64,000 nucleotides of DNA from Candidatus Omnitrophota bacterium. GTDB taxonomy: Bacteria > Omnitrophota > Gorgyraeia > Zapsychrales > Zapsychraceae. Of the stretch, positions 41,843-58,628 are shown one piece after another. Made by a program: the position numbers and the translations under genes. A model generated the notes under the pieces. The model saw only the letters and a list, made by a program, of their open reading frames with translations. It was not told the origin of the DNA and did no database searches. The stretch covers positions 6,855-70,854 of the forward strand of contig JACROV010000079.1 of the NCBI GenBank assembly GCA_016214285.1, given 5' to 3'. Numbering within the stretch: position 1 is the first letter of the stretch; each line of letters starts with the position of its first letter.

Positions 41843-44623
41843 ATGAATGAATCGCAAACCCGTAAAGAATATATTAACAAAGCCTTGGCCAGGGCCCAAT
41901 GGACCCCCAATGGGTCCTGCCGGTACACCGAAGAATTTGAAATGGACAAGGTTTGGAGTTCCGGCATTGCCGAACCAACGACACCCTATGGCGCAAGCCA
42001 TGAATATGCCGATTATTTATTGCTTGGACGTGATGAACAACCGCTCGCCATTGTTGAAGCTAAAAGAACCACTAAAAATGCGCGCATAGGCCAGCAGCAA
42101 GCCAAGGGCTACGCCGAAAATATCAAAGCCAAATTCGGCATCGAACCATTTATATTTCTGACCAACGGAGAAGATATTTTATTTTGGGACCGCCAGCGAT
42201 ATCCTCCCCGCCTTGTTTACGGATTTTTTGAACGAAGGGATTTAGAGCGGCTCTATTTCCAACGACAGGAAGCCGCCCAAAATTTTTCCGGCATCAAAAT
42301 CAATCCCGAGATCGCTGATCGCGATTATCAAGCTGAAGCCATCCGTACCGTATTAACGGGAATACAAAACGGCCGCCGCAAGTTTCTATTAGTCATGGCC
42401 ACGGGTACCGGAAAAACGCGTACGACCATGGCCATCATCGATTGTCTTTTAAGAGCCAAGCGCATTAATACCGTTTTATTCTTAACAGACCGTAAAGTCC
42501 TTCGTGATCAGGCCTACGGTAAAAAAGGATATCAGGGATTTTTCAGCGAAAGTTGCGGTAGAATTACATCCGGAAAATTTAACGCGGAAAAGCGTCTTTA
42601 CGCGGCCACCATCCAGACGATGATGGAGTGTTACAAAGACATTTCGCCGGGTTTCTTTGATCTGGTGATTGCGGATGAGTGCCATCGCTCCATTTACAAC
42701 AAATGGAAAGATGTTTTATCCTATTTTGATGCCCTTCAGATTGGCCTGACCGCCACACCTGCCCAGTTTATTGAAAGAGATACCTTCCGTTATTTTGAAG
42801 TGGACTTAAAAAATCCTAAAGACAACCTTTTTAATTATTCGTATGAAAAGGCTGTTGATGAAAAACATTTACTTCCCTTTGTTCCCTACCACGCCAAAAC
42901 GTCTTTTCAGATCAAGGGGCTGCGAGAAGACGAAATCCCTCTGGCAGTTAAAAAGAAATTAGTAGAAGAGGGCAAAACCCTCGATGAATTAAACTTCGAA
43001 GGAACCGAGTTTGAAAAACGCTTTACCAATACCGGCACCCACGAGGCCATGGTCCGGGAATTTATGGAGGTTTGTTATAAAGACGATACCGGAACGTTGC
43101 CCGGTAAAACCATCATCTTTGCGATGACGAAGAATCACGCTTACCGCTTATTGGATGCCTTTGATCAGCTCTATCCCCAGTATAAGGGAAGACTCGCCGA
43201 GGTTATCGTTTCCGAAGATTCGCGGGCGGATAATTTTCTTGGGCGTTTTGAAAATGACAGCTATCCCAGGATCGCTATCTCGGTGGACATGCTCGACACG
43301 GGTATCGATATCAGAGAAGTTACCAATTTGGTCTTTGCCAAACCGGTCTTCAGCAAGATCAAATTCTGGCAGATGATCGGCCGCGGGACACGCACCCTCG
43401 ACAAGAACAATATGAAGCTCTGGTGCCCGCAGAAAGAGAATTTTTTGATCATCGATCACTGGAATAATTTCGAATATTTCGGCGAGAAACCGGAAGGAGA
43501 AGTCCCTCCCATGGAGGACGCCGTTACCTCGCGCGTGTTTAAAGTCAAAGTTAACCGTTTACGGTTTTACCTTCATCGCTTGGATCAGAAAGAAATCGAA
43601 GGCGTCAAAAAAGAGCTGCGAGATATGATCGCAAAACTCCCCCAGGATTCCATCAGCGTTAAAGAAAGAAAAGATGTCCTACAAAGACTGGCGAGTCCTC
43701 AATTCTGGACCAATGTGGATACCGACTATTTGTATGATCACGTGGCCCCTTTGATGCGTTTTTTGGAAGATATCAATTACAACGAATATTCCTTTATTCT
43801 GAAGTGTGAACAGCTTGAACTGGCATTTCTTAATAAAGATGAGCGCAGAATTCTTGATCTCAAAGACGCTGTTAAAGACGATTTGCAATTGTTGCCCATG
43901 ACGCTTCAAGTCGTCAAGCGTGAACAAGAAACGGTCTTCAAGACCGCCTCTGACGCCTTTTGGAGTGGTCTTTCGATCGAAGGCATCCGTGAGGCCAAAC
44001 AAAAATTGTCGCCAATTATGAAATATAAACGCCAGAATCCGCGTGAAATCATTCAATTCGATCTGGATGACCAGATCATTGAGCGCAAATGGATCGAGTT
44101 CGGGCCCAACGGCGAAGGGGCGTATGTCCACATTTATAAAGAAAAGGTCGAAAGGCGGGTCAAAGAATTGGCGGATAAAGAGTCGGCCATTATTAAGATC
44201 TGTAATGATGAACCGGTCAATGACCATGACCTGGAGGCCCTCGAAAATACTTTGAACGGGCCGGAGCTGTATATCACGGAAGATAAATTACGTGAGGCCT
44301 ACAGCCAGCCGTCGGGGACTTTGGTTCAATTTATTAAATCAATTTTCGGCAAATACAAATTTAAAAGTCAGGAAGACCAGATCGCCGAAAGCTTTGACGC
44401 GTTTATCATTGCGCACAATTACAATACCGACCAGACGCGTTTTTTGCGCGTCATCAAAAGTGTATTCCTGGCCAAGATCCGCCGCCATGAATTGCTGGAA
44501 ATCGACGATTTCTACGAAGGGCCGGTGAAGGAATTAGGCGGAGACATCGCCGACCACCTTTTTTCGAAGCAACAAATGGATGAAGTTATTGAATTCTGCA
44601 ATGAGCGGGTACTGGTGAAATGA
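41843..44623 (+). CDS. hsdR: Type I restriction enzyme R subunit
   Basis: HSDR_N nuclease domain, SF2 helicase motifs (MATGTGKT, DECHRS) and a C-terminal domain. AT-rich. Confidence 0.85.
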   Translation: MNESQTRKEYINKALARAQWTPNGSCRYTEEFEMDKVWSSGIAEPTTPYGASHEYADYLLLGRDEQPLAIVEAKRTTKNARIGQQQAKGYAENIKAKFGIEPFIFLTNGEDILFWDRQRYPPRLVYGFFERRDLERLYFQRQEAAQNFSGIKINPEIADRDYQAEAIRTVLTGIQNGRRKFLLVMATGTGKTRTTMAIIDCLLRAKRINTVLFLTDRKVLRDQAYGKKGYQGFFSESCGRITSGKFNAEKRLYAATIQTMMECYKDISPGFFDLVIADECHRSIYNKWKDVLSYFDALQIGLTATPAQFIERDTFRYFEVDLKNPKDNLFNYSYEKAVDEKHLLPFVPYHAKTSFQIKGLREDEIPLAVKKKLVEEGKTLDELNFEGTEFEKRFTNTGTHEAMVREFMEVCYKDDTGTLPGKTIIFAMTKNHAYRLLDAFDQLYPQYKGRLAEVIVSEDSRADNFLGRFENDSYPRIAISVDMLDTGIDIREVTNLVFAKPVFSKIKFWQMIGRGTRTLDKNNMKLWCPQKENFLIIDHWNNFEYFGEKPEGEVPPMEDAVTSRVFKVKVNRLRFYLHRLDQKEIEGVKKELRDMIAKLPQDSISVKERKDVLQRLASPQFWTNVDTDYLYDHVAPLMRFLEDINYNEYSFILKCEQLELAFLNKDERRILDLKDAVKDDLQLLPMTLQVVKREQETVFKTASDAFWSGLSIEGIREAKQKLSPIMKYKRQNPREIIQFDLDDQIIERKWIEFGPNGEGAYVHIYKEKVERRVKELADKESAIIKICNDEPVNDHDLEALENTLNGPELYITEDKLREAYSQPSGTLVQFIKSIFGKYKFKSQEDQIAESFDAFIIAHNYNTDQTRFLRVIKSVFLAKIRRHELLEIDDFYEGPVKELGGDIADHLFSKQQMDEVIEFCNERVLVK

Positions 44624-45660
44624 AATCTTTTTCCGATCAATATTTAAACAGAATACGTATCACGCCGCAATTGTTGAGCCTCACGAACGCCTTGTCAGAG
44701 TATAAGGGGAAGGAGGTGTTATATACGCGGCAATCTCCCGATGTCTTGGAGAAGCTCGTCGAGCGGGCTAAAGTGGAAAGCGTCGAATCATCCAATCGTA
44801 TAGAGGGAATTAACGTGAAACACGATCGTGTCGTTGATATCGTCGAACAGCAATCAACGCCGCGCAATCGTCCTGAAGAAGAGGTGGCTGGTTATCGGGA
44901 CGCCCTGGAGTACATTCATGAGAATCACAAGGCCATCCCGGTTGCGCTCAATACGGTATCTTTGTTTCACCAGTTTTTATACAAGAACACCAATCAGACC
45001 GGAGGTGAGTTTAAGTGGGAGGATAATTTGATTATCGACCGGCTCAAGGATGGAACCGAGCGGGTACGTTTCCGTCCGCCTCCGGCCAGCCAAACATATC
45101 TTTATGTACATGAGCTGATGAACGCCTACAAATTTGTATCCAGCCAGCGTAATCTTTCGCCCTTGATATCGATTCCGCTTTTTATCCTGGATTATTTATG
45201 CATCCACCCTTTTAAGGACGGCAATGGGCGCACGGCGCGTTTGTGGGCGCTTTTGCTTTTGTATCACGCCGGTTACAGTGTCGGCAAGTACATCAGTCTG
45301 GAAAGGATTATTGAGCAAAGCAAGGAAACGTACTATGAGTCATTGGAGCGATCATCGCAAGGCTGGCATGACGAGAAGCATAATGTTGAGCCGTGGCTGC
45401 ATTATTTTTGCGGGGTATTGATCGCGGCGTACAAGGAGTTTGAGTCGCGGGTTGGGGTATTCCGCGAAGAGAGCACAAAAACCGGCCAGATTAAAACATA
45501 CGTCAATAAAGCGGTCATTCCTTTTTCTATTTCTGATGTTGAGCAGGCATGCCCCAATATCAGCCGGGATATGATCCGTTTGGTGTTGCGTGAGTTGCGC
45601 AATTCAGGAACAATTTATACTACGGGAAAAGGTCGTGGGGCAAAATGGGTAAAGAAATAG
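44620..45660 (+). CDS. Fic/DOC family protein embedded in the type I RM operon
   Basis: Fic motif HPFKDGNGRTARL and a C-terminal wHTH. 4-nt overlap with hsdR. Confidence 0.8.
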   Translation: MKSFSDQYLNRIRITPQLLSLTNALSEYKGKEVLYTRQSPDVLEKLVERAKVESVESSNRIEGINVKHDRVVDIVEQQSTPRNRPEEEVAGYRDALEYIHENHKAIPVALNTVSLFHQFLYKNTNQTGGEFKWEDNLIIDRLKDGTERVRFRPPPASQTYLYVHELMNAYKFVSSQRNLSPLISIPLFILDYLCIHPFKDGNGRTARLWALLLLYHAGYSVGKYISLERIIEQSKETYYESLERSSQGWHDEKHNVEPWLHYFCGVLIAAYKEFESRVGVFREESTKTGQIKTYVNKAVIPFSISDVEQACPNISRDMIRLVLRELRNSGTIYTTGKGRGAKWVKK

Positions 45661-45723
45661 GGTAAAAAGCCTATTAAGTAGGTAATTTTATATATAAATA
45701 CCCTATTTTTATGGAGGATATTC

Positions 45724-47223
45724 ATGTTAAATCCTGAACTCAAGTCACAAATCCGCCGTTTATGGAACAAATTCTGGGAAGGGGGAATTGCCAATCCCCT
45801 GACCGCCATCGAGCAGATGTCCTATCTGATATTTATGAAGCGCTTGGAAGACATGGACTTCCAGCACAAAAAGGCGGCCGATCGGCGCAATGAAAAATAT
45901 GTTTCCATTTATAAAGGGCAGGAAAACTGCCGCTGGTCTTACTGGATCAATATGCCGGCCGAAGAAATGATCGCCCACGTGCGCGACAAGGTATTTCCCT
46001 TTATCAAGACATTAAAAGACGACGATCATCATTTCAGTCAGTCTATGAAAGACGCGGTCTTTATGATTCCCCGGCCTTCCCTGTTGCAGGAATCCGTGCG
46101 CATCATTGATGAGCTCAATATTACCCAGCAAAATCAGGATACCCAGGGAGATCTTTATGAATATCTTTTAAGCGAACTGAAAACCTCCGGCAAGAACGGC
46201 CAATTCCGCACGCCGCGGCATATTATCCGGATGATCGTGGAATTGGTCAATCCCGTCTTGGGTGACCGGATCTGTGACCCGGCCTGTGGCACCGCCGGAT
46301 TTTTGATCAACGCCTACCAGCATATCCTCAAAGAAAATACCTCGCCCGATGTTCTGGAAGTGGATGAAGACGGCGTACCGCACCATCTGGTGGGGGATAA
46401 GATCACGGATAAGAAACAGCGCGCGTTCTTGAAGGAAAAAGCCCTGCACGGGTTTGATTTTGACACGACCATGGTGCGGATCGCCTTGATGAACGCCGTC
46501 TTGCACGGCATCGACAAACCCAATATCCGCTACACGGATACGCTGTCTAAGACTTACGAAGAAAAAGAAAAATATGAGATCGTGCTGGCCAATCCGCCGT
46601 TTAAAGGCAGTATCGACAAAAGCGATATCTCCGATCGGCTGAAGCTCAAGACCACCAAGACCGAGCTTTTGTTCATGAATCTTTTTGTGGAATTGCTGGT
46701 TACCGGCGGCAAATGCGGGGTCATTGTCCCGGACGGTGTTTTGTTCGGCTCCTCCAACGCGCACAAAGAGGCCCGTACAATGCTGGTCGAGGAAAACGAA
46801 CTGCAGGGCATCATCAAAATGCCCTCCGGCGTCTTCAAACCTTACGCCGGTGTTTCGACCGCGGTGGTGATCTTCGCCAAAGGCGGCACAACTGATAAGG
46901 TCTGGTTCTACGACATGCAGGCCGACGGCTTTTCGCTGGATGACAAACGTACCAAAACCCCGGACAAAAACGACATCCCCGACATCATTGCCCAGTGGAA
47001 CGCCCGTGACAAAAAGAAATCACCCTGCAAAGGCGAGAAGTGGTTCTGGGTGGATGCGAAAGAAATCCGTGAAAACAAATATGACCTCTCCATCTCCCGC
47101 TACAAACCGGTGGAGTATGAGGAAGTGCAGTATGACTCGCCCCAAGCGATCCTAGCCAAAACCACAGCCCTCGAGGCTGAAATCGCGGGGGAAATTAAAG
47201 AAATTGAGGCATTGTTGAAATGA
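45724..47223 (+). CDS. hsdM: Type I restriction-modification N6-adenine DNA methyltransferase M subunit
   Basis: HsdM N-terminal domain, AdoMet site (DPACGTAGFL) and catalytic NPPF motif. Confidence 0.9.
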   Translation: MLNPELKSQIRRLWNKFWEGGIANPLTAIEQMSYLIFMKRLEDMDFQHKKAADRRNEKYVSIYKGQENCRWSYWINMPAEEMIAHVRDKVFPFIKTLKDDDHHFSQSMKDAVFMIPRPSLLQESVRIIDELNITQQNQDTQGDLYEYLLSELKTSGKNGQFRTPRHIIRMIVELVNPVLGDRICDPACGTAGFLINAYQHILKENTSPDVLEVDEDGVPHHLVGDKITDKKQRAFLKEKALHGFDFDTTMVRIALMNAVLHGIDKPNIRYTDTLSKTYEEKEKYEIVLANPPFKGSIDKSDISDRLKLKTTKTELLFMNLFVELLVTGGKCGVIVPDGVLFGSSNAHKEARTMLVEENELQGIIKMPSGVFKPYAGVSTAVVIFAKGGTTDKVWFYDMQADGFSLDDKRTKTPDKNDIPDIIAQWNARDKKKSPCKGEKWFWVDAKEIRENKYDLSISRYKPVEYEEVQYDSPQAILAKTTALEAEIAGEIKEIEALLK

Positions 47224-47302
47224 AGCTGACTTCATGAAAAAAGAATGAGAATGCGAGATCGGTTCAGGGAGCAGATGAGAAGATAAATGTCTTATATTTT
47301 AC

Positions 47303-48619
47303 CAGTACTGTCCGGTTATAAGTTGAACATTGTCAATTGTTTATCGTTCTCAACGTTCTGGCCGTCGATATTAGTTTCTGTAAGTGCTTGCAATATAGGC
47401 GTTTTGTCGAAAATGGTCACGCTCAAAATTTGTAAAATTGTGTAAAGACTCGGTTTGAGGTTGAGACGTTTTTTGATAATGGCTACGAGCACGTAAACCG
47501 AGATTGCGATCCAGACCTGCGTCTTGACGGCGTTTTGCGATGTCCCGAAGAAAGCCTTGATGCGCAAATGCTGTTTGATCCAACGGAAAAAGAGTTCGAC
47601 TTTCCAACGGCATTTGTAAAGTTGTGCTACGGTAATCGCGTCGACATCGAAATTGTTGGTCAGGAAGGTAAAACGTTTTTTGGTCTCGGAATCGAAAAAT
47701 TTGATCAGACGAAGCTGTTCCGGATAATCTTTGGCTGATTGCACACCGGTTAAAAGAATTGTTTGATCGCACCGTAATCCTGTTGCTTTGTTGACTGGGC
47801 GCGAATAAAGACGCCGGTATTGTGTGTTGGATTTGATCCGGGTAATAAATGTCGCGCGCGCCTGATGTATAGTATACAAACGCGCAAAGTCGAGATACCC
47901 GCGGTCCATGATGTAGAACGATCCGGCTTCGAGGAACAGGATGTCCAGAACGTTTACATCCGCGACTTTTCCGTCGGTGATATTGATAAATGACGGGATT
48001 GGCCCGCGTAGATCCAAAAGCGTGTGAAGCTTGATCGCGCCCTTGCTCTTTCGAAAATGCGCCCATGGAAAAAGCGACAGACACAGGTCGATGGTTGTTG
48101 AGTCCAGCGCATAAACTGTATTTTCCAAATCGACCCCGAACGAATCTTCGCGATAAAGTTCGCGGGCTTGATGGATCAGAACCTGCGCGAAGTCTGCGTA
48201 AATGTGCCAGTCGCGATTCTCGTTGGCATCGGCCAATGTGCTTTTGGATATTGAGCCGCGAATGCCCATGTGATAAAGTTTCGGCTGCATGAATCGCAAG
48301 CACGCGGTGATGTCGCGCAAACTCTCGCGATAAGTCAATTGCGCAAAGCTCATGCACAAAAATTGATCCATGCACGAAAAATTCTTGATCCTGTAGTCGC
48401 CTTGATGCCGCGCAACACATTTGCGGAATTCGTGCAGTGGCAAGAATTCCATGACTTGAGAAAAGATTGTTTTTCCCGTGTTCATTGGACGCTCCTTTGT
48501 TGGTAGGAGCGCCAAAATAACACGCATTTGAATTCAAATCGATTAAAAGGTTTTTATGCATAACATAATAAAAATTATAGAGTTACAAAATTCAATTAAA
48601 AGTTAACCGGACACTACTG
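47303..48619 (-). mobile_element. Intact IS4-family insertion sequence (~1.32 kb) with imperfect terminal IRs and a 9-bp target-site duplication ATATTTTAC
   Basis: Left end CAGTACTGTCCGGTTA.., right end ..TAACCGGACACTACTG. Direct repeats atattttac at 47294-47302 and 48620-48628. Single DDE transposase ORF. Confidence 0.85.
47316..48527 (-). CDS. IS4-family DDE transposase
   Basis: IS4-type N-terminus (MNTGKTIFSQVMEFLP..FSCMDQFLCMSFAQLTYRESLRDI) and DDE residues (LDSTTID, IMDRGY, KVELFFRWIKQ). The alternative start M15 gives a 48485 end. Confidence 0.85.
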   Translation of the reverse strand: MRVILALLPTKERPMNTGKTIFSQVMEFLPLHEFRKCVARHQGDYRIKNFSCMDQFLCMSFAQLTYRESLRDITACLRFMQPKLYHMGIRGSISKSTLADANENRDWHIYADFAQVLIHQARELYREDSFGVDLENTVYALDSTTIDLCLSLFPWAHFRKSKGAIKLHTLLDLRGPIPSFINITDGKVADVNVLDILFLEAGSFYIMDRGYLDFARLYTIHQARATFITRIKSNTQYRRLYSRPVNKATGLRCDQTILLTGVQSAKDYPEQLRLIKFFDSETKKRFTFLTNNFDVDAITVAQLYKCRWKVELFFRWIKQHLRIKAFFGTSQNAVKTQVWIAISVYVLVAIIKKRLNLKPSLYTILQILSVTIFDKTPILQALTETNIDGQNVENDKQLTMFNL

Positions 48620-49276
48620 ATATTTTACTGGATGAATCTGGAGACTTGGGCTTCGATTTTAGTCGAAAAGGGACGACAAATTATTTTCTTGTCACTTTCC
48701 TTAAATTATGTGACAAATATTCTGCTGGACAGGATATTTACCAGAAAGCTGGTCCCGGTCGATCAAGAAATTGTGTTTATTGCTTCCAAGAGGGAGACAA
48801 ACGCGTTCTTAAACGAGAATTTTAGAAACTACCTCAAAGGTCAAGCGCTCAATACCCATAAGGTTAGATTGCACATTGAGATTAAGACGCCTTCAGAGGA
48901 GAAGGCGTTACAGGCGGTAGATTTTATTAGTTGGGCGGTTTTTAGAAAACACGAGTATCAGGACGGGTCTTATTACGACATGGTAAAAAAGAAAATCGTT
49001 GAAGAAAATCCTTTGTTCCCTTAGAAATGGTAAAGCCTCATTCGCTATTTACGAGGTGCCATTCCGGTACCCCACGAATGAGGACTTACTTACCACAGTA
49101 ACAATCAAAATTTTTGACCGCCCCGACTACTCTTGCGAGAGGGCCCCATGGGCCCTTGTCATTAAGGCGGAACCTTTAAATTTGCGACCGGGGAAACCCC
49201 GATCCACCTCCAATTGCTTGAATTGCTTTAAGTATAGTTTATGTGTGTGTATGTGTCAAGGTTTCATTCAAAGAAG

Positions 49277-49310
49277 AGCCCTCGAGGCTGAAATCGCGGG
49301 GAAATTAAGG
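49277..49310 (+). repeat. Duplicate of the hsdM 3'-end sequence (agccctcgaggctgaaatcgcgggg.aaattaa) immediately upstream of hsdS
   Basis: 34/36 identity with 47166-47201 (hsdM codons ...ALEAEIAGEIKE). Both hsdM and hsdS junctions also share ttgaaATGAAG. Confidence 0.6.
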
Positions 49311-49419
49311 AATAGGGTTATGCCTTTGATGAACAGTGCAACAGGATTTCGTGCCCATCGTATGCTGGAAGTGGTAGTCAAGGGCATAACCCTATTAAGG
49401 AAAATGAGAAATTATTGAA

Positions 49420-50607
49420 ATGAAGAATCGGACCGTGGCCATTAGTGACCTTTGTCAACAAATTCGAGGAGTCTCCTATAAAGGAGGGGAAGCAATCGAT
49501 ACTCCCCGAGATGGTTATTTGCCAATTTTAAGAGCGAATAATATTTGCGATGGAGAAATCTCTTATGATGATTTAGTGTTCGTGCCTCAAAAGTATGTTA
49601 GCAAGACGCAGGTTTTACAGAAGAACGATGTTGTTATCGCGGCATCGAGCGGAAGTCTCGAAATTGTCGGTAAAGCTGCTCAAATTAAAGGTGAATTCAA
49701 AGGAAGTTTTGGGGCTTTCTGTAAAGTTTTAAGGCCCAATTCAGATGTTGACTCTGCGTATTTCTCCTATTTTTTCAAAACGCCGTTTTATAGACATACA
49801 ATTTCACATCTTGCGGCAGGGGCAAATATTAATAATCTTAGGAATGAACATCTTGATAATTTGAAGATTCCTTTACCTTCTTTTGAAATTCAAAGAAAGA
49901 ATGTGGCATTTTTGTCGAAGGCTGAATCCGCTCTCGAAAAACGCCGCCAGACCCTGCGCCTGGCCGACGAATTCCTCAAATCCGTGTTTTTGGAGATGTT
50001 CGGGGAGCCGGGAGCCAATTTAAAGGATTTTAAAACCAGTCCCATTAGAGATTTGGTTAAAAAAGTTATTAACGAGGACCCCCCGCGATACCCGGCCAAG
50101 AGTTATTCTTACGTGGATATTTCATCTATAGATAATCAATTAAAGAAGATAACTGAAACTAAGCAGATTCTAGGGGAGGATGCGCCTGGCAGGGCAAGAC
50201 AACTTTTACAAGCACAAGATATTCTGGTTTCAACAGTGCGCCCGAATCTAAATGCTGTTGGCGTTTTACCAGATGGGTTAAGCAACCCTATAGGATCAAC
50301 GGGGTTCTGCGTATTGCGGGCCAATAGGGAGCTTGTCCTGCCAGAGTATTTATTTGAAATTTGTAAGACGTCTTTTTTTATTAAATCTTTAGTCAATGTT
50401 GCAAAAGGAGCCAGTTATCCGGCTGTCAGCGATAATGATATTTTAAGACTATCAATACCAGTGCCGTCTTTGCCTGAACAGCAAAAATTCGCCGAGCTTG
50501 TCCAGAAAGTCGAGAAACTCAAAGAAAAACAAAAACAATCCGAAACCCAACTCCAAAACCTCTTTAACTCCCTCATGCAAAGGGCGTTTAGGGGGGACAT
50601 ATTATGA
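49420..50607 (+). CDS. hsdS: Type I restriction-modification specificity subunit
   Basis: Two target-recognition domains separated and followed by conserved coiled-coil repeats (TLRLADEFLKSVFLEMFG; LPEQQKFAELVQKVEKLKEKQ). Confidence 0.85.
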   Translation: MKNRTVAISDLCQQIRGVSYKGGEAIDTPRDGYLPILRANNICDGEISYDDLVFVPQKYVSKTQVLQKNDVVIAASSGSLEIVGKAAQIKGEFKGSFGAFCKVLRPNSDVDSAYFSYFFKTPFYRHTISHLAAGANINNLRNEHLDNLKIPLPSFEIQRKNVAFLSKAESALEKRRQTLRLADEFLKSVFLEMFGEPGANLKDFKTSPIRDLVKKVINEDPPRYPAKSYSYVDISSIDNQLKKITETKQILGEDAPGRARQLLQAQDILVSTVRPNLNAVGVLPDGLSNPIGSTGFCVLRANRELVLPEYLFEICKTSFFIKSLVNVAKGASYPAVSDNDILRLSIPVPSLPEQQKFAELVQKVEKLKEKQKQSETQLQNLFNSLMQRAFRGDIL

Positions 50608-51614
50608 AAAAAGTGTTTGTATTGGGGGCTGGTACAAGTCGTGATTTTGGGTTCCCATCGGGCATTGAGTTGATGAAGGAAATACATTCGTCCTGGGAGC
50701 ATCCCGATGAGATTGCTATTAATAATTATGTAAATATTATGGAGAAGTTAAAAAAAGAATTTCGATCTCATCCGAATCGAATCGCTGTGGAGAAAATCAA
50801 GAAATTATCGTATAGGTTTTATTTATCGGGTGCCGATTCTGACTTTTTAAGTCAATGCAAAGATGAGGTTGACCTTCAATTTGGAAGACTGACCATTTTG
50901 AATGCAATTCTTAAAAAGGAACAAAAGACGAAACAGTTTGGCGATGGTACACTTTTCAAGTGGGAAGAGAACTGGTTGAGGGTTTTGTTTGGAGAGGAGT
51001 TTCGTTTCGAAAATGTTGAACAATTAAAAAAGAAGTTAGAAACAGAGCAATTTTATTTTGTGATATTCAATTACGATCGCTGTGTGGAACATTTTTTATA
51101 TACGGCCATTCAAAATTATTACGATTTAAAAGGTGAAGACACAAAAGACATTATTAATAAAATGCGCTTTTATCATGTGTATGGACAGCTGGCTCCTTTG
51201 GAGTGGCAGCCAGAAGGCAATCCTATTAGATTCGGGGATGCTTTTGAAGGTGTATTCGATGACTTGTATCGTTTCGTTCCCAATATTAAGATTGTCAATG
51301 AAGACAGAGGTGACGTCGAGGACATCAGACATAAAATTGGCGCGCAAATCAGAGATGCCGGGAAAGTATATATTTTGGGGTTTGGTTTTCAGGATCCAAA
51401 TTGGAAGCTGCTCGGGATTGATGAATATAAAAAACATCGTGCCAATGGATTGCCTTGGTCAGCCGGCAAGTTTCACTACACGAATTTTGGTTTAAGCAAA
51501 CGACGTAGGGAACATATTCGGGGAAAACTATTTGGTCTCATATCCAATGGCACCGATTCGGCGAGATCATACGATTCGACGGTTTATGAATTCATGCATC
51601 ACGATTATACGTGA
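50604..51614 (+). CDS. SIR2-like (SIR2_2 family) protein, candidate NAD+-depleting defence effector or sensor
   Basis: N-terminal VLGAGTSRDFGFPSGIEL (GAGxS...GxP), catalytic-region FNYDRCVEH (T/NYD motif), FYHVYGQL (lHG-like). Overlaps the hsdS stop by 4 nt. Confidence 0.65.
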   Translation: MKKVFVLGAGTSRDFGFPSGIELMKEIHSSWEHPDEIAINNYVNIMEKLKKEFRSHPNRIAVEKIKKLSYRFYLSGADSDFLSQCKDEVDLQFGRLTILNAILKKEQKTKQFGDGTLFKWEENWLRVLFGEEFRFENVEQLKKKLETEQFYFVIFNYDRCVEHFLYTAIQNYYDLKGEDTKDIINKMRFYHVYGQLAPLEWQPEGNPIRFGDAFEGVFDDLYRFVPNIKIVNEDRGDVEDIRHKIGAQIRDAGKVYILGFGFQDPNWKLLGIDEYKKHRANGLPWSAGKFHYTNFGLSKRRREHIRGKLFGLISNGTDSARSYDSTVYEFMHHDYT

Positions 51615-51662
51615 TATTCAGGTCAGACCTCATACAAAGGGCGTTTAGGGGAGAAATATAAG

Positions 51663-52430
51663 ATGACTCTTCTGATTAGCCGAATCATTTTAACGCTGGT
51701 AATAGTCTATGTTACATATTTAATATGGACTTCGAATGTCGATCTGGTTTTGTGGTCTAAGAATGCGATTCGCGGGTGGTTGCCAATCAATAAGGAATTC
51801 CCAGAGAGTGTAAAAACAGAGCAAAGCCCCGAGATGATTAAAACATTAAGGGATAATGCAATGTGGTCTGTGGAAGGGTTTCAACAAGGGGATCGAAGGA
51901 GTTACCTAACATTGTTATCATGGGCAAGTAACCCAAAGGATACTGTAACAAAGAATTTGATTATATCTGCAATAGAAGAAATTAAAGACGTTTACGGGCA
52001 AACTGATGTTATGAGACAGCATATTGAACCAGTCCGCAACCCCCATCGTTGGTGGATTTGTAAAGAAAGCATCCCTTCTTGCCATGATGGATTTGAAGAA
52101 CCAACAGGTTACAAAGCACAAAATATAATTAACCACCTTGCAAGAAAGTTGTGGCAAGAACGCGGAAGGGCCGCCAGTATTTTAAGAAATATCAAGACGG
52201 CTTCGGATAAAGATCGGATTAATGAGGATGCCACTATTAAAGAACAACTTTTCGATAAGCTTATAGAGCGTCTGAATCTCGAGAAGGAAAATAGCCTGTT
52301 TGTTGCTAAAATGGCGTTTGAGACATATAAAGATTTGACCGGATTTTCGTCGGACGGCGTTTTTGATTTCGCGGGCGCGATCAAAGACTGGGAAACGCGA
52401 AAAGAGAAAATTTTAAGAATGAATTTTTGA
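51663..52430 (+). CDS. Hypothetical protein with a single N-terminal TM helix (255 aa)
   Basis: TM helix at residues ~4-22, then a ~230-aa soluble domain with no recognised motif. About 48 nt after the SIR2 gene. Confidence 0.55.
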   Translation: MTLLISRIILTLVIVYVTYLIWTSNVDLVLWSKNAIRGWLPINKEFPESVKTEQSPEMIKTLRDNAMWSVEGFQQGDRRSYLTLLSWASNPKDTVTKNLIISAIEEIKDVYGQTDVMRQHIEPVRNPHRWWICKESIPSCHDGFEEPTGYKAQNIINHLARKLWQERGRAASILRNIKTASDKDRINEDATIKEQLFDKLIERLNLEKENSLFVAKMAFETYKDLTGFSSDGVFDFAGAIKDWETRKEKILRMNF

Positions 52431-52897
52431 AAATATTTATTATGGAAGATAAATCTGGGAAAATCATCATCACGCGCAGGATGTGGCAGCTTTTGGCCGC
52501 CGCGGGGGTTGTCCTGTTGACCATTTTGGTCACGTATTATCCCTTGAACCCGCGTTACGGGCTGTGGGTGGGCGGGCAAATCTTCTTTATAGTTTTTGCC
52601 CTGGCCTATTTGCGAGAAGAAAGGAGGGCGACGCGATCGCCGGATTCCAACGCGGTCATCAACTGGAATCTGATCGAAGCGGGTTTGCTTTTAGCGAGCA
52701 TCTTAGGATATTCTGTTCTGGCTTATGTCTGTCACTTTAGCAGGGAAGTTTTTTATGCCTATTTTTATACCGGCGCGTTGGGATTGCTGGGCGGAGTGGC
52801 GCTGGGCGAATGGTTGTGGCAGAATACCAGGTTAAAGGAACTTGATGAGACTTGCCGCCAACGGTATTGGGCAAATTATAAGGATTCAATTCTTTGA
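52427..52897 (+). CDS. Small integral membrane protein (4 predicted TM helices, 156 aa)
   Basis: Four hydrophobic segments. The start overlaps the stop of the upstream gene (ATGA). Confidence 0.55.
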   Translation: MKIFIMEDKSGKIIITRRMWQLLAAAGVVLLTILVTYYPLNPRYGLWVGGQIFFIVFALAYLREERRATRSPDSNAVINWNLIEAGLLLASILGYSVLAYVCHFSREVFYAYFYTGALGLLGGVALGEWLWQNTRLKELDETCRQRYWANYKDSIL

Positions 52898-52970
52898 TCG
52901 TCCACGATAGTGTTCCATTATTGCAATTGTATCGACGTATGATACAATGAGAAACATTTAAGAGGAGTTT

Positions 52971-52990
52971 CCGGTTATCCGGATAACCGG
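52971..52990. promoter_or_regulatory. Perfect 20-bp palindrome ccggttatccggataaccgg upstream of prfB
   Basis: About 50 nt upstream of the prfB ATG. Related to the GGTTATCCGG repeats at 39940-40045 and to the family C 3' ends. Confidence 0.5.
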
Positions 52991-53041
52991 TTACCCGGAT
53001 CTCCGGAGCGGGTGGGAAAACAGTCACTATGTCCGACGATA

Positions 53042-54124
53042 TTACCAGAAGAATTGACGCGATAGATGCGCAGCTCAAGCATCTGAGGGGGTTTCTTTGA
53101 CCTGCCGCAGAAGGAGGAGTCCATCCGTTCCATCCAGGAGCGGATGTCGGAGGCGAATTTTTGGGACAATCCCGGCCAGGCCAACAAGATCATGCGCGAG
53201 TTGAAGTACCTGAAAAGCTGCGTTGAACCCTTCGATCAGAGCACCAAACGGCTGGAAGATATCCGTGAATTAACCGTTCTTTCCAAGGATGACCCGGAAT
53301 TTTTGAATCATGTGCAGGAAGAATTGGCCCAGCTAGAATCCGAGGTCAACAAGCTTGAACTTCAGAGTATCCTTTCGGGACAGTTCGACGCCAATAACGC
53401 GATCCTGAGCATCAACGCGGGCGCGGGCGGGACCGAATCCTGTGACTGGGCGAATATGCTGCTGCGCATGTACACCCGCTGGGCGGAAGACAACAACTGC
53501 AAGGTCAAAGTGCTGGATATCCTCGCCGGTGAAGGGGCAGGGATCAAAAACGCGACGTTGAGCATCGAAGGCGAGATGGTCTATGGTTATTTAAAGGGTG
53601 AAAAAGGCGTGCACCGTCTGGTGCGTATTTCGCCTTTTGATGCCAACAAAAGACGGCATACCTCGTTCGCTTCCGTGGATGTCATTCCTGAGATCGAAGA
53701 AGACATTGACATCGAAATAAACCCGGGCGACCTGCGCATTGATATCTTTCGTTCCTCCGGACCCGGCGGGCAAAGTGTCAACACGACCGACTCCGCGGTG
53801 CGCATGACGCATTTACCGACGGGAATTGTCGTCCAATGCCAGAATGAACGCTCGCAGTTGCAAAACCGGCAAGTGGCCATGAAAATTTTGCGGGCCAGAT
53901 TGTATGAATTAAAGCGCCGCGAGCAGGACGAGCGCATGGCCCAGGAATACGGCGAGAAACAAAAGATCGAATGGGGCAGCCAGATCCGTTCCTACGTCAT
54001 GCATCCCTACACGATGGTCAAAGACCACCGCACCGACGTGGAAACCGGGAACGTCACCAAAGTGATGGATGGGGATTTGAGGATTTTTATAGAGGCGTAT
54101 TTGAAGGTGAAACCGGAGAAATAG
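53042..54124 (+). CDS. prfB: Peptide chain release factor 2, with a programmed +1 ribosomal frameshift at CUU UGA C (53108-53114)
   Basis: ORF0 MSDDITRRIDAIDAQLKHLRGFL stops at TGA 53111-53113. It is preceded by the SD-like AGGGGG and continues in the +1 frame from 53112 (DLPQKEESIRSIQERMSEANFWDNPG...). GGQ and SPF motifs lie downstream. Confidence 0.9.
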
Positions 54125-57392: not shown

Positions 57393-58628
57393 ATGAATTC
57401 CCAGCAAATCAATCGTAAATTCGCCAATCCGTTCCGTCCAGGCGCAGGCCATATGCCGCCACATTTAGCTGGACGCGAAAAGGAAAAAGAAGAGTTTTTA
57501 AGGCTTATCGCACAAAGTACAATACTTGAAAATATGGTACTTACCGGATTGCGAGGTGTCGGTAAAACGGTACTACTTGATGAATTTAAACCAATGGCCA
57601 TTAACCAAGGTTGGTTTTGGGTTGGGACCGATCTTTCAGAGTCAGCCAGTATTAGTGAAGCTAATCTTGCTACACGGGTTCTGGCTGATTTGTCCGTTCT
57701 GACATCAAATATTATTATAGGCAAGAAACAGATTCCTCAGATGGGTTTTTCAAATCTTTCTACAGAGGTTGATACCAGAATGGGGTTCGATTTTTTATCC
57801 GCCCTATTTAACAGTACTCCGGGATTGATATCGGATAAATTAAAAAATGTTTTAGAAACAGTATGGAGTGTTTTAAAACAGACAAGCACAAAAGGATTAA
57901 TTTTCGCTTATGATGAGGCCCAAAATTTATCCGACCAACCCGCGAAAGATCAATATCCTCTTGGGATATTGCTGGATGTTTTTCAGTCTATACAAAAAAA
58001 GGATATCCCGTTTTTACTGGTTTTAACAGGTTTGCCAACATTATTTCCTAAGCTTGTGGAGTCCAGAACTTTTACGGAACGGATGTTTAGAGTGGTAGTC
58101 CTGAAACGTTTAAATGAAAAAGACAGCAAGGATGCTATATTAAAACCTGTCCAGAGCGCCCAATGTCCGATTAAATTGAGTGATGAATCTGTCAATTTAA
58201 TTGTGAAGCATTCGGGGGGGTATCCTTATTTTATACAGTTTATCTGCCGGGAAACATATGATGTTTTTCTCTCCAAAATTGCTTCGGGTGAGACACCCAC
58301 AGTTCCTGTTAATGAGATCACCCGAAAATTAGATACGGATTTTTTTGCTGGAAGGTGGGCGCGCGTAACTGATCGACAAAAAGAACTTCTATTCATTATT
58401 GCAAAACTTCCCAATAGCGAGGAGGAATTCTCTGTTCAGGATGTAGCTGAGAAGTCCAAAGAGATGATGGAACATCCATTTAGTCCAAGCCATGTTAACC
58501 AAATGCTTAGTTCCCTGAGCGACAATGGTTTAGTATATAAAAATCGTCATGGTAAATACTCATTAGCTGTTCCTCTTCTTAGTCAGTTTATATTACGGCA
58601 ACATGAACAGTCAGGAAGCGTAATATAG
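57393..58628 (+). CDS. AAA ATPase (PF01637/Arch_ATPase-like), AT-rich and probably horizontally acquired
   Basis: Conserved N-terminus NPFRPGAGHMPPHLAGREKE..., P-loop LTGLRGVGKTVLL, Walker B FAYDEAQ. The gene is roughly 40% GC against a ~55% genome. Confidence 0.65.
   Translation: MNSQQINRKFANPFRPGAGHMPPHLAGREKEKEEFLRLIAQSTILENMVLTGLRGVGKTVLLDEFKPMAINQGWFWVGTDLSESASISEANLATRVLADLSVLTSNIIIGKKQIPQMGFSNLSTEVDTRMGFDFLSALFNSTPGLISDKLKNVLETVWSVLKQTSTKGLIFAYDEAQNLSDQPAKDQYPLGILLDVFQSIQKKDIPFLLVLTGLPTLFPKLVESRTFTERMFRVVVLKRLNEKDSKDAILKPVQSAQCPIKLSDESVNLIVKHSGGYPYFIQFICRETYDVFLSKIASGETPTVPVNEITRKLDTDFFAGRWARVTDRQKELLFIIAKLPNSEEEFSVQDVAEKSKEMMEHPFSPSHVNQMLSSLSDNGLVYKNRHGKYSLAVPLLSQFILRQHEQSGSVI

Follow-up and report, generated by a model that had tools for sequence, protein, structure and literature searches.

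A stand-alone SIR2-like gene as a repeat-bounded cassette behind hsdS in a type I restriction island of Omnitrophota

The region behind the type I specificity gene hsdS (positions 49,420 to 52,897) was analysed in a stretch of 64,000 nucleotides (nt), hereafter the window, from contig JACROV010000079.1 of a Candidatus Omnitrophota bacterium. Three open reading frames (ORFs), ORF1 to ORF3, follow each other here and had been proposed, in a sequence-only reading, to form one operon-encoded defence system of a SIR2-like protein with two membrane partners. Our comparison points to a different organization: the region is very probably the tail of a type I island, hsdR-fic-hsdM-[IS]-hsdS (IS, insertion sequence), inserted upstream of the chromosomal backbone genes ORF3, prfB and secA. 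Judging from the aligned relatives, ORF1 and ORF2 are two independent single-gene modules behind hsdS and do not make up an operon-encoded system. For the island architecture and ORF1 as a stand-alone cargo gene with a SIR2 fold taken together, we estimate a probability of roughly 0.6. What is new is an uncharacterised stand-alone SIR2-like family that occurs in Omnitrophota as a repeat-bounded cassette coupled to hsdS; the themes varied here, namely defence SIR2 proteins, restriction-linked effectors and shuffling at hsdS loci, are already known.

The three ORFs lie on the + strand where they had been placed and with the lengths given for them in amino acids (aa). ORF1 and ORF2 carry the database locus tags HZC18_06945 and HZC18_06950. 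Related loci are referred to by number (L001 and so on), and the features of the region are as follows.

49420 to 50607, + strand: hsdS specificity subunit, with two Pfam Methylase_S stretches and the C-terminus ...LMQRAFRGDIL
50571 to 50602, + strand: direct repeat copy 1, found by repeat search, equal to the hsdS 3' end, CCTCATGCAAAGGGCGTTTAGGGGGGACATAT
50604 to 51614, + strand: ORF1, a 336-aa stand-alone SIR2-fold protein whose ATG overlaps the hsdS stop as ATGA, as had been read before
51628 to 51659, + strand: direct repeat copy 2, 29/32 identical to copy 1, a displaced hsdS 3'-end relic and right edge of the ORF1 cassette
51663 to 52430, + strand: ORF2, a 255-aa single-pass membrane protein, the island's usual last gene
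52431 to 52441, no strand: junction of island and backbone, placed by a Bro-N insertion in L010 and by a step in GC content at third codon positions (GC3)
52442 to 52897, + strand: ORF3, a 151-aa protein with four transmembrane (TM) segments, part of the backbone and adjoining prfB-secA

The ORF1 gene forms a unit of ~1.06 kb that is bracketed by the 32-nt direct repeat. The chance expectation of this repeat family was 0.00 (100 shuffles). Copy 1 encodes ...LMQRAFRGD at the end of hsdS and carries a G-rich, Shine-Dalgarno-like run before ORF1, and copy 2 ends 3 nt before the ATG of ORF2. The same motif is located at gene junctions behind hsdS in related islands. L001 holds two copies (2811 and 3873), one before and one after the ORF1 homologue. 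Three copies in L003 (4053, 5149 and 6217) separate hsdS, a second SIR2-like gene, the ORF1 homologue and the ORF2 homologue from one another, and single copies in L004 (5969) and L007 (4975) are found at the hsdS end. An orphan relic of the motif precedes the ORF2 homologue in L097/L098. The hsdS-end motif had 0 matches in 2.55 Mb of control loci and 0 matches in viral contigs. In L005/L006, a 71%-identical ORF1 homologue lies between a different pair of hsdS 3' relics (33 nt, 1 mismatch), which encode ...SILAKAFRGELV. Five further loci contain the ORF1 gene between flanks of this kind, each time with differing neighbours.

Nucleotide alignments delimit the same unit. The window and L001 are 88.6% identical over 50560-51654, which is exactly the ORF1 unit, and their flanks are otherwise different. 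Identity over this unit is ~71% with L003 and L004 (71.5% for L003), and for each of L001, L003 and L004 the homology to the window breaks off at 51654/51655.

Other origins of the repeat were considered and rejected. Assembly chimerism does not fit, as the copies differ at 3/32 positions and the same structure is present in independent JGI, ENA and Logan assemblies. A fixed-length attachment site or target-site duplication is discarded on account of the relics, which range from ~23 to ~66 nt and therefore suggest homology-driven events. The boundaries are direct hsdS coding copies of variable length and not the attC-like palindromes of integron-type cassettes. Neither the window nor its relatives showed an integrase among their listed genes.

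The repeated hsdS end could also be kept for a function (as ribosome-binding site, for translational coupling or as mRNA signal) rather than as a recombination scar, an explanation that we consider unlikely, although both may hold at once. A G-rich, Shine-Dalgarno-like run closes each copy, at a distance of a few to ~15 nt from the next start codon, and the window and L003 agree at 24/27 positions in the non-coding copy that precedes ORF2, compared with only 71.5% identity over the ORF1 unit. However, the copies span up to ~66 nt of in-frame hsdS coding sequence (L003 5149), beyond any ribosome-binding site, and the L005 relics encode ...LEQSILAKAFRGELV. Moreover, relics are still present at places that have lost hsdS, in L097/98 and L001, and each of two different nucleotide versions is found in pairs around ORF1 homologues.

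Under the recombination scenario, hsdS/ORF2 would be the ancestral order in this island family. ORF1, and in L003 another SIR2-like gene, would have been inserted between the two through recombination in the conserved 3' end of hsdS, by excision and reintegration or by unequal crossover, with duplication of that end. The old hsdS end would now stand before ORF2 and still supply its G-rich ribosome-binding run. A comparable arrangement is the pneumococcal tvr/SpnIV locus, where direct repeats in the hsdS locus guide circular excision and reintegration (PMC6265443). The likeness lies in the direct repeats, here of the hsdS 3' end, that delimit the gene units behind hsdS. The tvr locus, however, shuffles hsdS fragments and encodes a dedicated recombinase, whereas the units of the window are unrelated cargo with variable relics and no adjacent recombinase.

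The second SIR2-like gene of L003 (4079-5101, 340 aa) occupies the first slot behind hsdS and is bounded by hsdS-end repeats. Its product contains the motifs LLGAGASRA, TFNWDP, FLHGN and IFGYSGP and has no Pfam or PADLOC match. As only the N-terminal GAGAS motif is common with the ORF1 family, it is taken to be a separate family.

At the level of profiles and structure only, ORF1 is assigned the SIR2 fold; its GAGxS loop for NAD binding and its N-x-D motif are intact. Its AlphaFold model (predicted local distance difference test score, pLDDT, 89.9; predicted template modelling score, pTM, 0.90) comprises a single 336-aa domain, and its three-dimensional similarity to solved SIR2 domains places it in the SIR2 superfamily (DHS-like NAD-binding fold). 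The top structural and profile matches are defence SIR2 proteins, namely PsSIR2, KomC, Nezha Sir2 and ThsA. The ORF1-family profile aligned with the SIR2 NADase KomC (E=8.7e-6) in three colinear segments: the GAG loop, the NYD strand and a C-terminal G-Y-S strand. An alignment of 40 homologues revealed 16 invariant positions that are kept across phyla and include G8-A9-G10, P18, S79, G94, W124, N156-Y157, R159, E162, G194 and G259; D158 is present in 39/40 relatives. The SIR2-type motifs that had been named from the letters alone are indeed there and are kept in the 40 relatives (G8-A9-G10-x-S12, P18, N156-Y157-D158 and H191-x-Y193-G194). Specific to the family is a helical insert of ~130 aa, to which the invariant residues S79, G94 and W124 belong.

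Searches with single sequences were less informative. None of the three proteins had a significant match in Pfam, NCBIfam or PHROGs, a PDB search with the ORF1 sequence returned noise only, and the PADLOC SIR2 models matched ORF1 weakly, in its N-terminal part only (E about 4e-4). ORF1 fits no catalogued system in PADLOC v2, in agreement with the earlier reading, in which the architecture was not recognised as a described system.

The wider ORF1 family was searched among about 186,000 species-representative genomes, yielding 421 loci, of which 80 were fetched for neighbour analysis; identity is 24-32% in these 80. They show no conserved neighbour, the largest neighbour cluster covering 6/80 loci. 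Scattered defence genes adjoin some members (PARIS, pAgo-SIR2, Lamassu, MADS, Septu, AbiL). A consistent linkage to restriction genes is confined to the close ORF1 clade, where it is present in 6/7 loci (window, L001, L003, L004, L005/6 and L107). The gene stands behind hsdS in the window, L003 and L004, with a start/stop overlap of ATGA in the window and GTGA in L004, and in L001 behind a ResIII helicase that carries an hsdS relic. The family is uncharacterised, widespread and absent from Pfam and PADLOC, so that a single assay would annotate many genes.

Two of these close relatives have neighbours of their own interest. The L001 helicase (185-2833) is an 880-aa ResIII/DEAD protein unlike the HsdR of the window. 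Its gene ends in the hsdS 3' relic and is immediately followed by the ORF1 homologue, which shows that a different restriction-type gene can precede the cassette. In L005 (5269-9422), and in the same way in L006, a split DSR1 lies directly 3' of the ORF1 homologue. Both of its parts match PADLOC Dsr1, a 303-aa SIR2 protein with E=1e-73 and a 1081-aa C-terminal protein with E=6e-100.

Several observations weigh against the interpretation of ORF1 as a mobile SIR2-fold cassette of restriction islands. With regard to mobility, the range of relic lengths fits homologous recombination and leaves the mechanism open, no recombinase adjoins the cassettes, and L108 contains a cassette with a 153-aa gene that has no relic after it. 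The window, L001, L003 and L004 are homologous islands and hence not fully independent observations. No link to restriction genes exists in the wider family, whose neighbours include many housekeeping genes. With regard to the protein, the ORF1 sequence has no Pfam match even at E<=10 and thus falls below the gathering score of SIR2_2 (PF13289). Of the SIR2_2 assignment made earlier, the SIR2 fold is retained at the level of structure and profile; the Pfam family itself is matched by 17/40 relatives at E<=0.01 (best 3.2e-8), but not by ORF1. The canonical SIR2 catalytic His (xHG; H146 of KomC) is replaced by Tyr193. Across the 40 relatives this position is Tyr in 28, His in 11 and Phe in 1, and His191, two residues before it, is kept in 39/40. 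Finally, the ORF1 copy of the window is two residues short in the S-I-D-x-F-L motif, reading ADS--DFL where an 87%-identical relative has ADSIDDFL. The gap concerns residues 79-82 (window 50835-50845), in a motif that is nearly invariant across the 40 relatives. This copy may be an impaired allele or contain an assembly error.

By analogy with the protein AbiH, ORF1 is a tentative candidate for an NAD+-consuming abortive-infection effector, an assignment we hold to be possible without favouring it. AbiH is a lactococcal single-gene abortive-infection protein that resembles sirtuins and for which NAD depletion has been proposed (PMC13064643). ORF1 is similarly a stand-alone, sirtuin-like gene. 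The match to AbiH (Pfam PF14253) is marginal, with 1/40 family members at E=0.0014 and none for ORF1 itself, and AbiH has no reported linkage to restriction genes, unlike the close ORF1 clade.

A somewhat smaller chance is given to ORF1 not being an immune NADase at all. It would then be a sirtuin-like protein with another chemistry, such as a protein deacylase, an ADP-ribosyltransferase or a restriction-enzyme modifier, or a decayed, inactive copy that hitch-hikes with the island. The replaced His and the two missing residues bear on this possibility. Against this stand the best structural and profile matches, which are the four defence proteins named above, and the company of the close clade, which is always among restriction or defence genes, including the split DSR1; PARIS, pAgo-SIR2, Lamassu, MADS and Septu also recur near the wider family. 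So do the intact ORF and the 16 positions that are invariant across phyla.

Compared with the known defence SIR2 NADases (ThsA, DSR1/DSR2, SIR2-HerA/Nezha, SIR2-APAZ/pAgo SPARSA, KomC of Kongming and Avs5), ORF1 has no fused sensor domain and no conserved partner. It further differs by the Tyr at the canonical His position, the His two residues upstream and the ~130-aa insert. The earlier statement that SLOG, TIR, HerA and Ago partners are lacking is borne out by the single-domain model and by the neighbouring genes. In contrast to Thoeris, ORF1 has no SLOG-type domain, and ORF1-3 gave no TIR or ThsA/ThsB match in PADLOC or Pfam. DSR1 and DSR2 are proteins of ~1000 aa or more with a C-terminal sensor, whereas ORF1 has 336 aa and no Dsr match; the true split DSR1 beside the L005 homologue is clearly distinct from the ORF1 family. 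The HerA, pAgo and KomA/KomB partners of SIR2-HerA, SPARSA and Kongming were not found as neighbours in the window or its close relatives, and none of them is conserved in the 80 loci of the wider family.

A second analogy concerns PrrC: the type I enzyme linked to it keeps it silent, and a phage anti-restriction peptide activates it (PMC1484252, PMC3458546). As in the type Ic EcoprrI locus, ORF1, as a putative effector gene, lies behind hsdS with a start/stop overlap, and the close clade is linked to restriction genes. Because of this overlap and linkage, silencing by the restriction complex is proposed for ORF1. Its translation would be coupled to that of hsdS, its product would be kept silent by the complex, and inhibition of the complex by a phage would release it, following the PrrC-EcoprrI logic. 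That ORF1 guards the restriction enzyme in this manner is, in our opinion, improbable. PrrC combines an ABC-ATPase with an RNase, whereas ORF1 is an unrelated protein with a SIR2 fold, and the wider family, with its lack of restriction linkage, resembles RloC more than PrrC. If the SIR2-like cassette were an active hsdS-coupled effector, it would provide a second example, with different chemistry, of the PrrC paradigm, in which a suicide enzyme guards the restriction system against phage anti-restriction proteins.

A more general and rather doubtful proposal unites both aspects: the hsdS 3' end in these Omnitrophota may be a homology-guided docking site at which interchangeable single-gene effectors are stacked, with the SIR2-like cargo as an NAD+-depleting, PrrC-like guard. 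Genes observed in the slot that are candidates for such effectors are ORF2, small membrane proteins and two SIR2-like families unrelated to each other. With each arrival, translation of the new gene would be coupled to that of hsdS, and the hsdS end that stood there before would be displaced downstream. The SIR2-like cargo would act as a second line that fires once the restriction complex is disabled. The stacking of repeat-bounded cargo behind hsdS also yields a simple rule, open to testing, by which new defence genes could be sought in uncultivated phyla.

A single TM helix near the N-terminus of ORF2 precedes a helical domain that matches only generic repeat proteins. Its homologues are rich in K/R on the N-terminal side, and a pair of Cys residues covaries in the family (both in 16, neither in 5, a single one in 0). 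The K/R-rich N-terminus, the TM helix and the paired Cys together argue for an N-in/C-out topology with a disulfide-bonded periplasmic domain; from these sequence features, the C-terminal helical domain is probably periplasmic. A role at the envelope, e.g. in the exclusion of incoming DNA, is a speculative guess. With 120 representatives among 1.84 billion, the ORF2 family is a small one, and it lacks any known domain.

ORF2 is present in 8/9 related arrangements, mostly without ORF1, and the end of its nucleotide homology lies between 52426 and 52432 in seven relatives. It follows hsdS directly, with an ATGA overlap, in L007, a 153-aa membrane-protein gene in L108, an hsdS relic in L097/98 and a DNA methyltransferase in L103. 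The homologue in L097 (7872-8690) and L098 (96-914) lies within a run of ORFs that by eye, over their first 60 residues, look like menaquinone-biosynthesis genes. No restriction genes adjoin it there, and a weak HsdM-like match occurs ~6 kb downstream in L098. A Bro-N gene follows the ORF2 homologue in L010 (484-1329), L098 (955-1806), L105 (8118-8960) and L108 (3619-4008). In L105, only about 31 final ORF2 codons remain before Bro-N. Bro-N is thus accompanied by a remnant of the 3' end of ORF2, similar to the hsdS 3'-end relics that accompany ORF1.

A system of two genes, in which ORF1 is a SIR2 effector, ORF2 its membrane-anchored sensor or partner and ORF3 an unrelated neighbour, is quite unlikely. 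ORF1 is followed by ORF2 in three related islands: the window and L003, where the genes share a strand with a ~50-nt gap, and L001, where the ORF2 homologue of the pair is cut to 116 codons next to an intact ORF1. This order persisted while ORF1 diverged to 64% identity, and in L106 a different TM protein follows the ORF1 homologue. On the other hand, an hsdS 3'-end relic separates the two genes and the nucleotide homology breaks at this point. ORF1 homologues without an intact ORF2 occur in L001, with its truncated copy, and in L005/L006 and L106, where ORF2 is missing. ORF2 homologues without ORF1 occur in at least 8 contexts (L007, L108, L097/98, L008, L099, L102, L103 and L109). A common target slot behind hsdS accounts for the adjacency, and the ORF2 domain is probably periplasmic whereas ORF1 is cytoplasmic.

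ORF3 had been listed at 52427-52897 with 156 aa and was thought to overlap ORF2 by ATGA. The sole overlapping start is in fact a TTG (TTGA). All 38/38 homologues align from residue 6 and most have 151 aa, so the start is set at ATG 52442, 11 nt past the ORF2 stop. Direct reading of the sequence gives four hydrophobic segments; the topologies described before for both membrane proteins, single-pass for ORF2 and 4-TM for ORF3, are thus kept. GC3 steps from 0.395 to 0.592 at the ORF2/ORF3 junction. In L010, from another Omnitrophica metagenome-assembled genome, the ORF3-prfB-secA sequence (window 52442 onward) and the last 307 nt of ORF2, which is 5'-truncated there, both match the window at 96% identity, and a 1-kb Bro-N gene is inserted exactly at the ORF2/ORF3 junction. 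Its ORF3 copy is 94% identical and lies upstream of prfB-secA; the contig begins about 1.4 kb upstream of ORF3 and contains no ORF1. Distant ORF3 homologues in L011-L013 have unrelated neighbourhoods. By composition and gene order, ORF3 is a chromosomal backbone gene outside the island.

These results make the abortive-infection operon of a SIR2-like gene with two membrane-protein genes, as originally proposed, highly improbable. The three genes share a strand, the gaps between them are short and no terminator-like site was found between them on the + strand. Nevertheless, ORF3 has backbone composition and no real ATGA overlap with ORF2, it stands by prfB-secA in L010 next to a truncated ORF2 and Bro-N with ORF1 not on the contig, and its relatives in L011-L013 have unrelated neighbours. 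Homologues of the membrane-protein genes mostly occur without the SIR2 gene, which is largely the outcome that the earlier reading itself had named as speaking against the system. The neighbourhood survey found no other locus with all three genes, and each gene was found without the others. Showing that the trio is not a system keeps a false 'new system' out of the catalogues.

The remainder of the island lies upstream of hsdS and comprises the following features.

41843 to 47223, + strand: hsdR-fic-hsdM stretch, with Pfam HSDR_N/ResIII/EcoEI_R_C for hsdR and Fic for fic
47300 to 48622, - strand: IS element between hsdM and hsdS, with Pfam DUF4372 and DDE_Tnp_1

The island is a low-GC stretch (GC 0.39-0.46, flanks 0.50-0.57) that contains type I hsdR, fic, hsdM, an IS with a DDE transposase, and hsdS, identified by Pfam scan except for hsdM, which was assigned by homology. 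GC3 is 0.39 in hsdS, ORF1 and ORF2, compared with 0.59 in ORF3, 0.68 in prfB and 0.70 in secA. The window hsdM was identified via its annotated homologues in L003, L004 and L007, whose records carry N6_Mtase/HsdM_N and to which its product is ~90% identical in aa sequence. The whole hsdR-fic-hsdM stretch is 77-80% identical in nucleotides to L004, L007 and L003. On the basis of these characteristic domains in hsdR, hsdM and hsdS, the island is a type I restriction-modification island. The defence-island setting described earlier hence stands as far as the restriction-modification genes, fic, the IS and the low GC are concerned; the DUF3800 remnant that was counted with them is a weak match (E=0.0016), its 19.6 bits lying below the cut-off of 21 bits.

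The transposase ORF of the IS spans 47316-48527, between 19-nt terminal inverted repeats at 47300-47318 and 48604-48622. As the element separates hsdM from hsdS, it may affect hsdS expression. The related islands give neither a nucleotide nor a translated match to the segment 47224-49420, which contains the IS and remnants. The junction of the hsdM 3' end and the hsdS start is duplicated (repeat D3, 85% identical, at window 47200-47225 and 49400-49425), and an 'ALEAEIAG' relic of the HsdM C-terminus is found just 5' of hsdS (window 49270-49420 region). Two copies of the hsdM end thus bracket the IS and the DUF3800 fragment, a second recombination scar in the same island.

An Rfam search of 41-54.5 kb found no RNA family, and promoter and terminator scans of the region stayed close to shuffle expectation and were uninformative. 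A 24-nt palindrome, TCCGGTTATCCGGATAACCGGTTA, is located between ORF3 and prfB (window 52970-53007), beside a promoter-like site at 52921-52948. The prfB gene (window 53029-54124) shows the classical programmed +1 frameshift, with CTT TGA C at 53095-53101 after AGGGGG. Its short ORF runs from ATG 53029 and ends in ...L-R-G-F-L-stop, and the long frame extends as far as 54124. Only its downstream part, from 53144, appears in the ORF list. Directly after secA, a second low-GC patch (57393-58628; GC 0.40, GC3 0.34) encodes a 411-aa ATPase of the AAA_16/ATPase_2 type, and related ATPase_2 genes occur near the ORF3 homologues in L011-L013.

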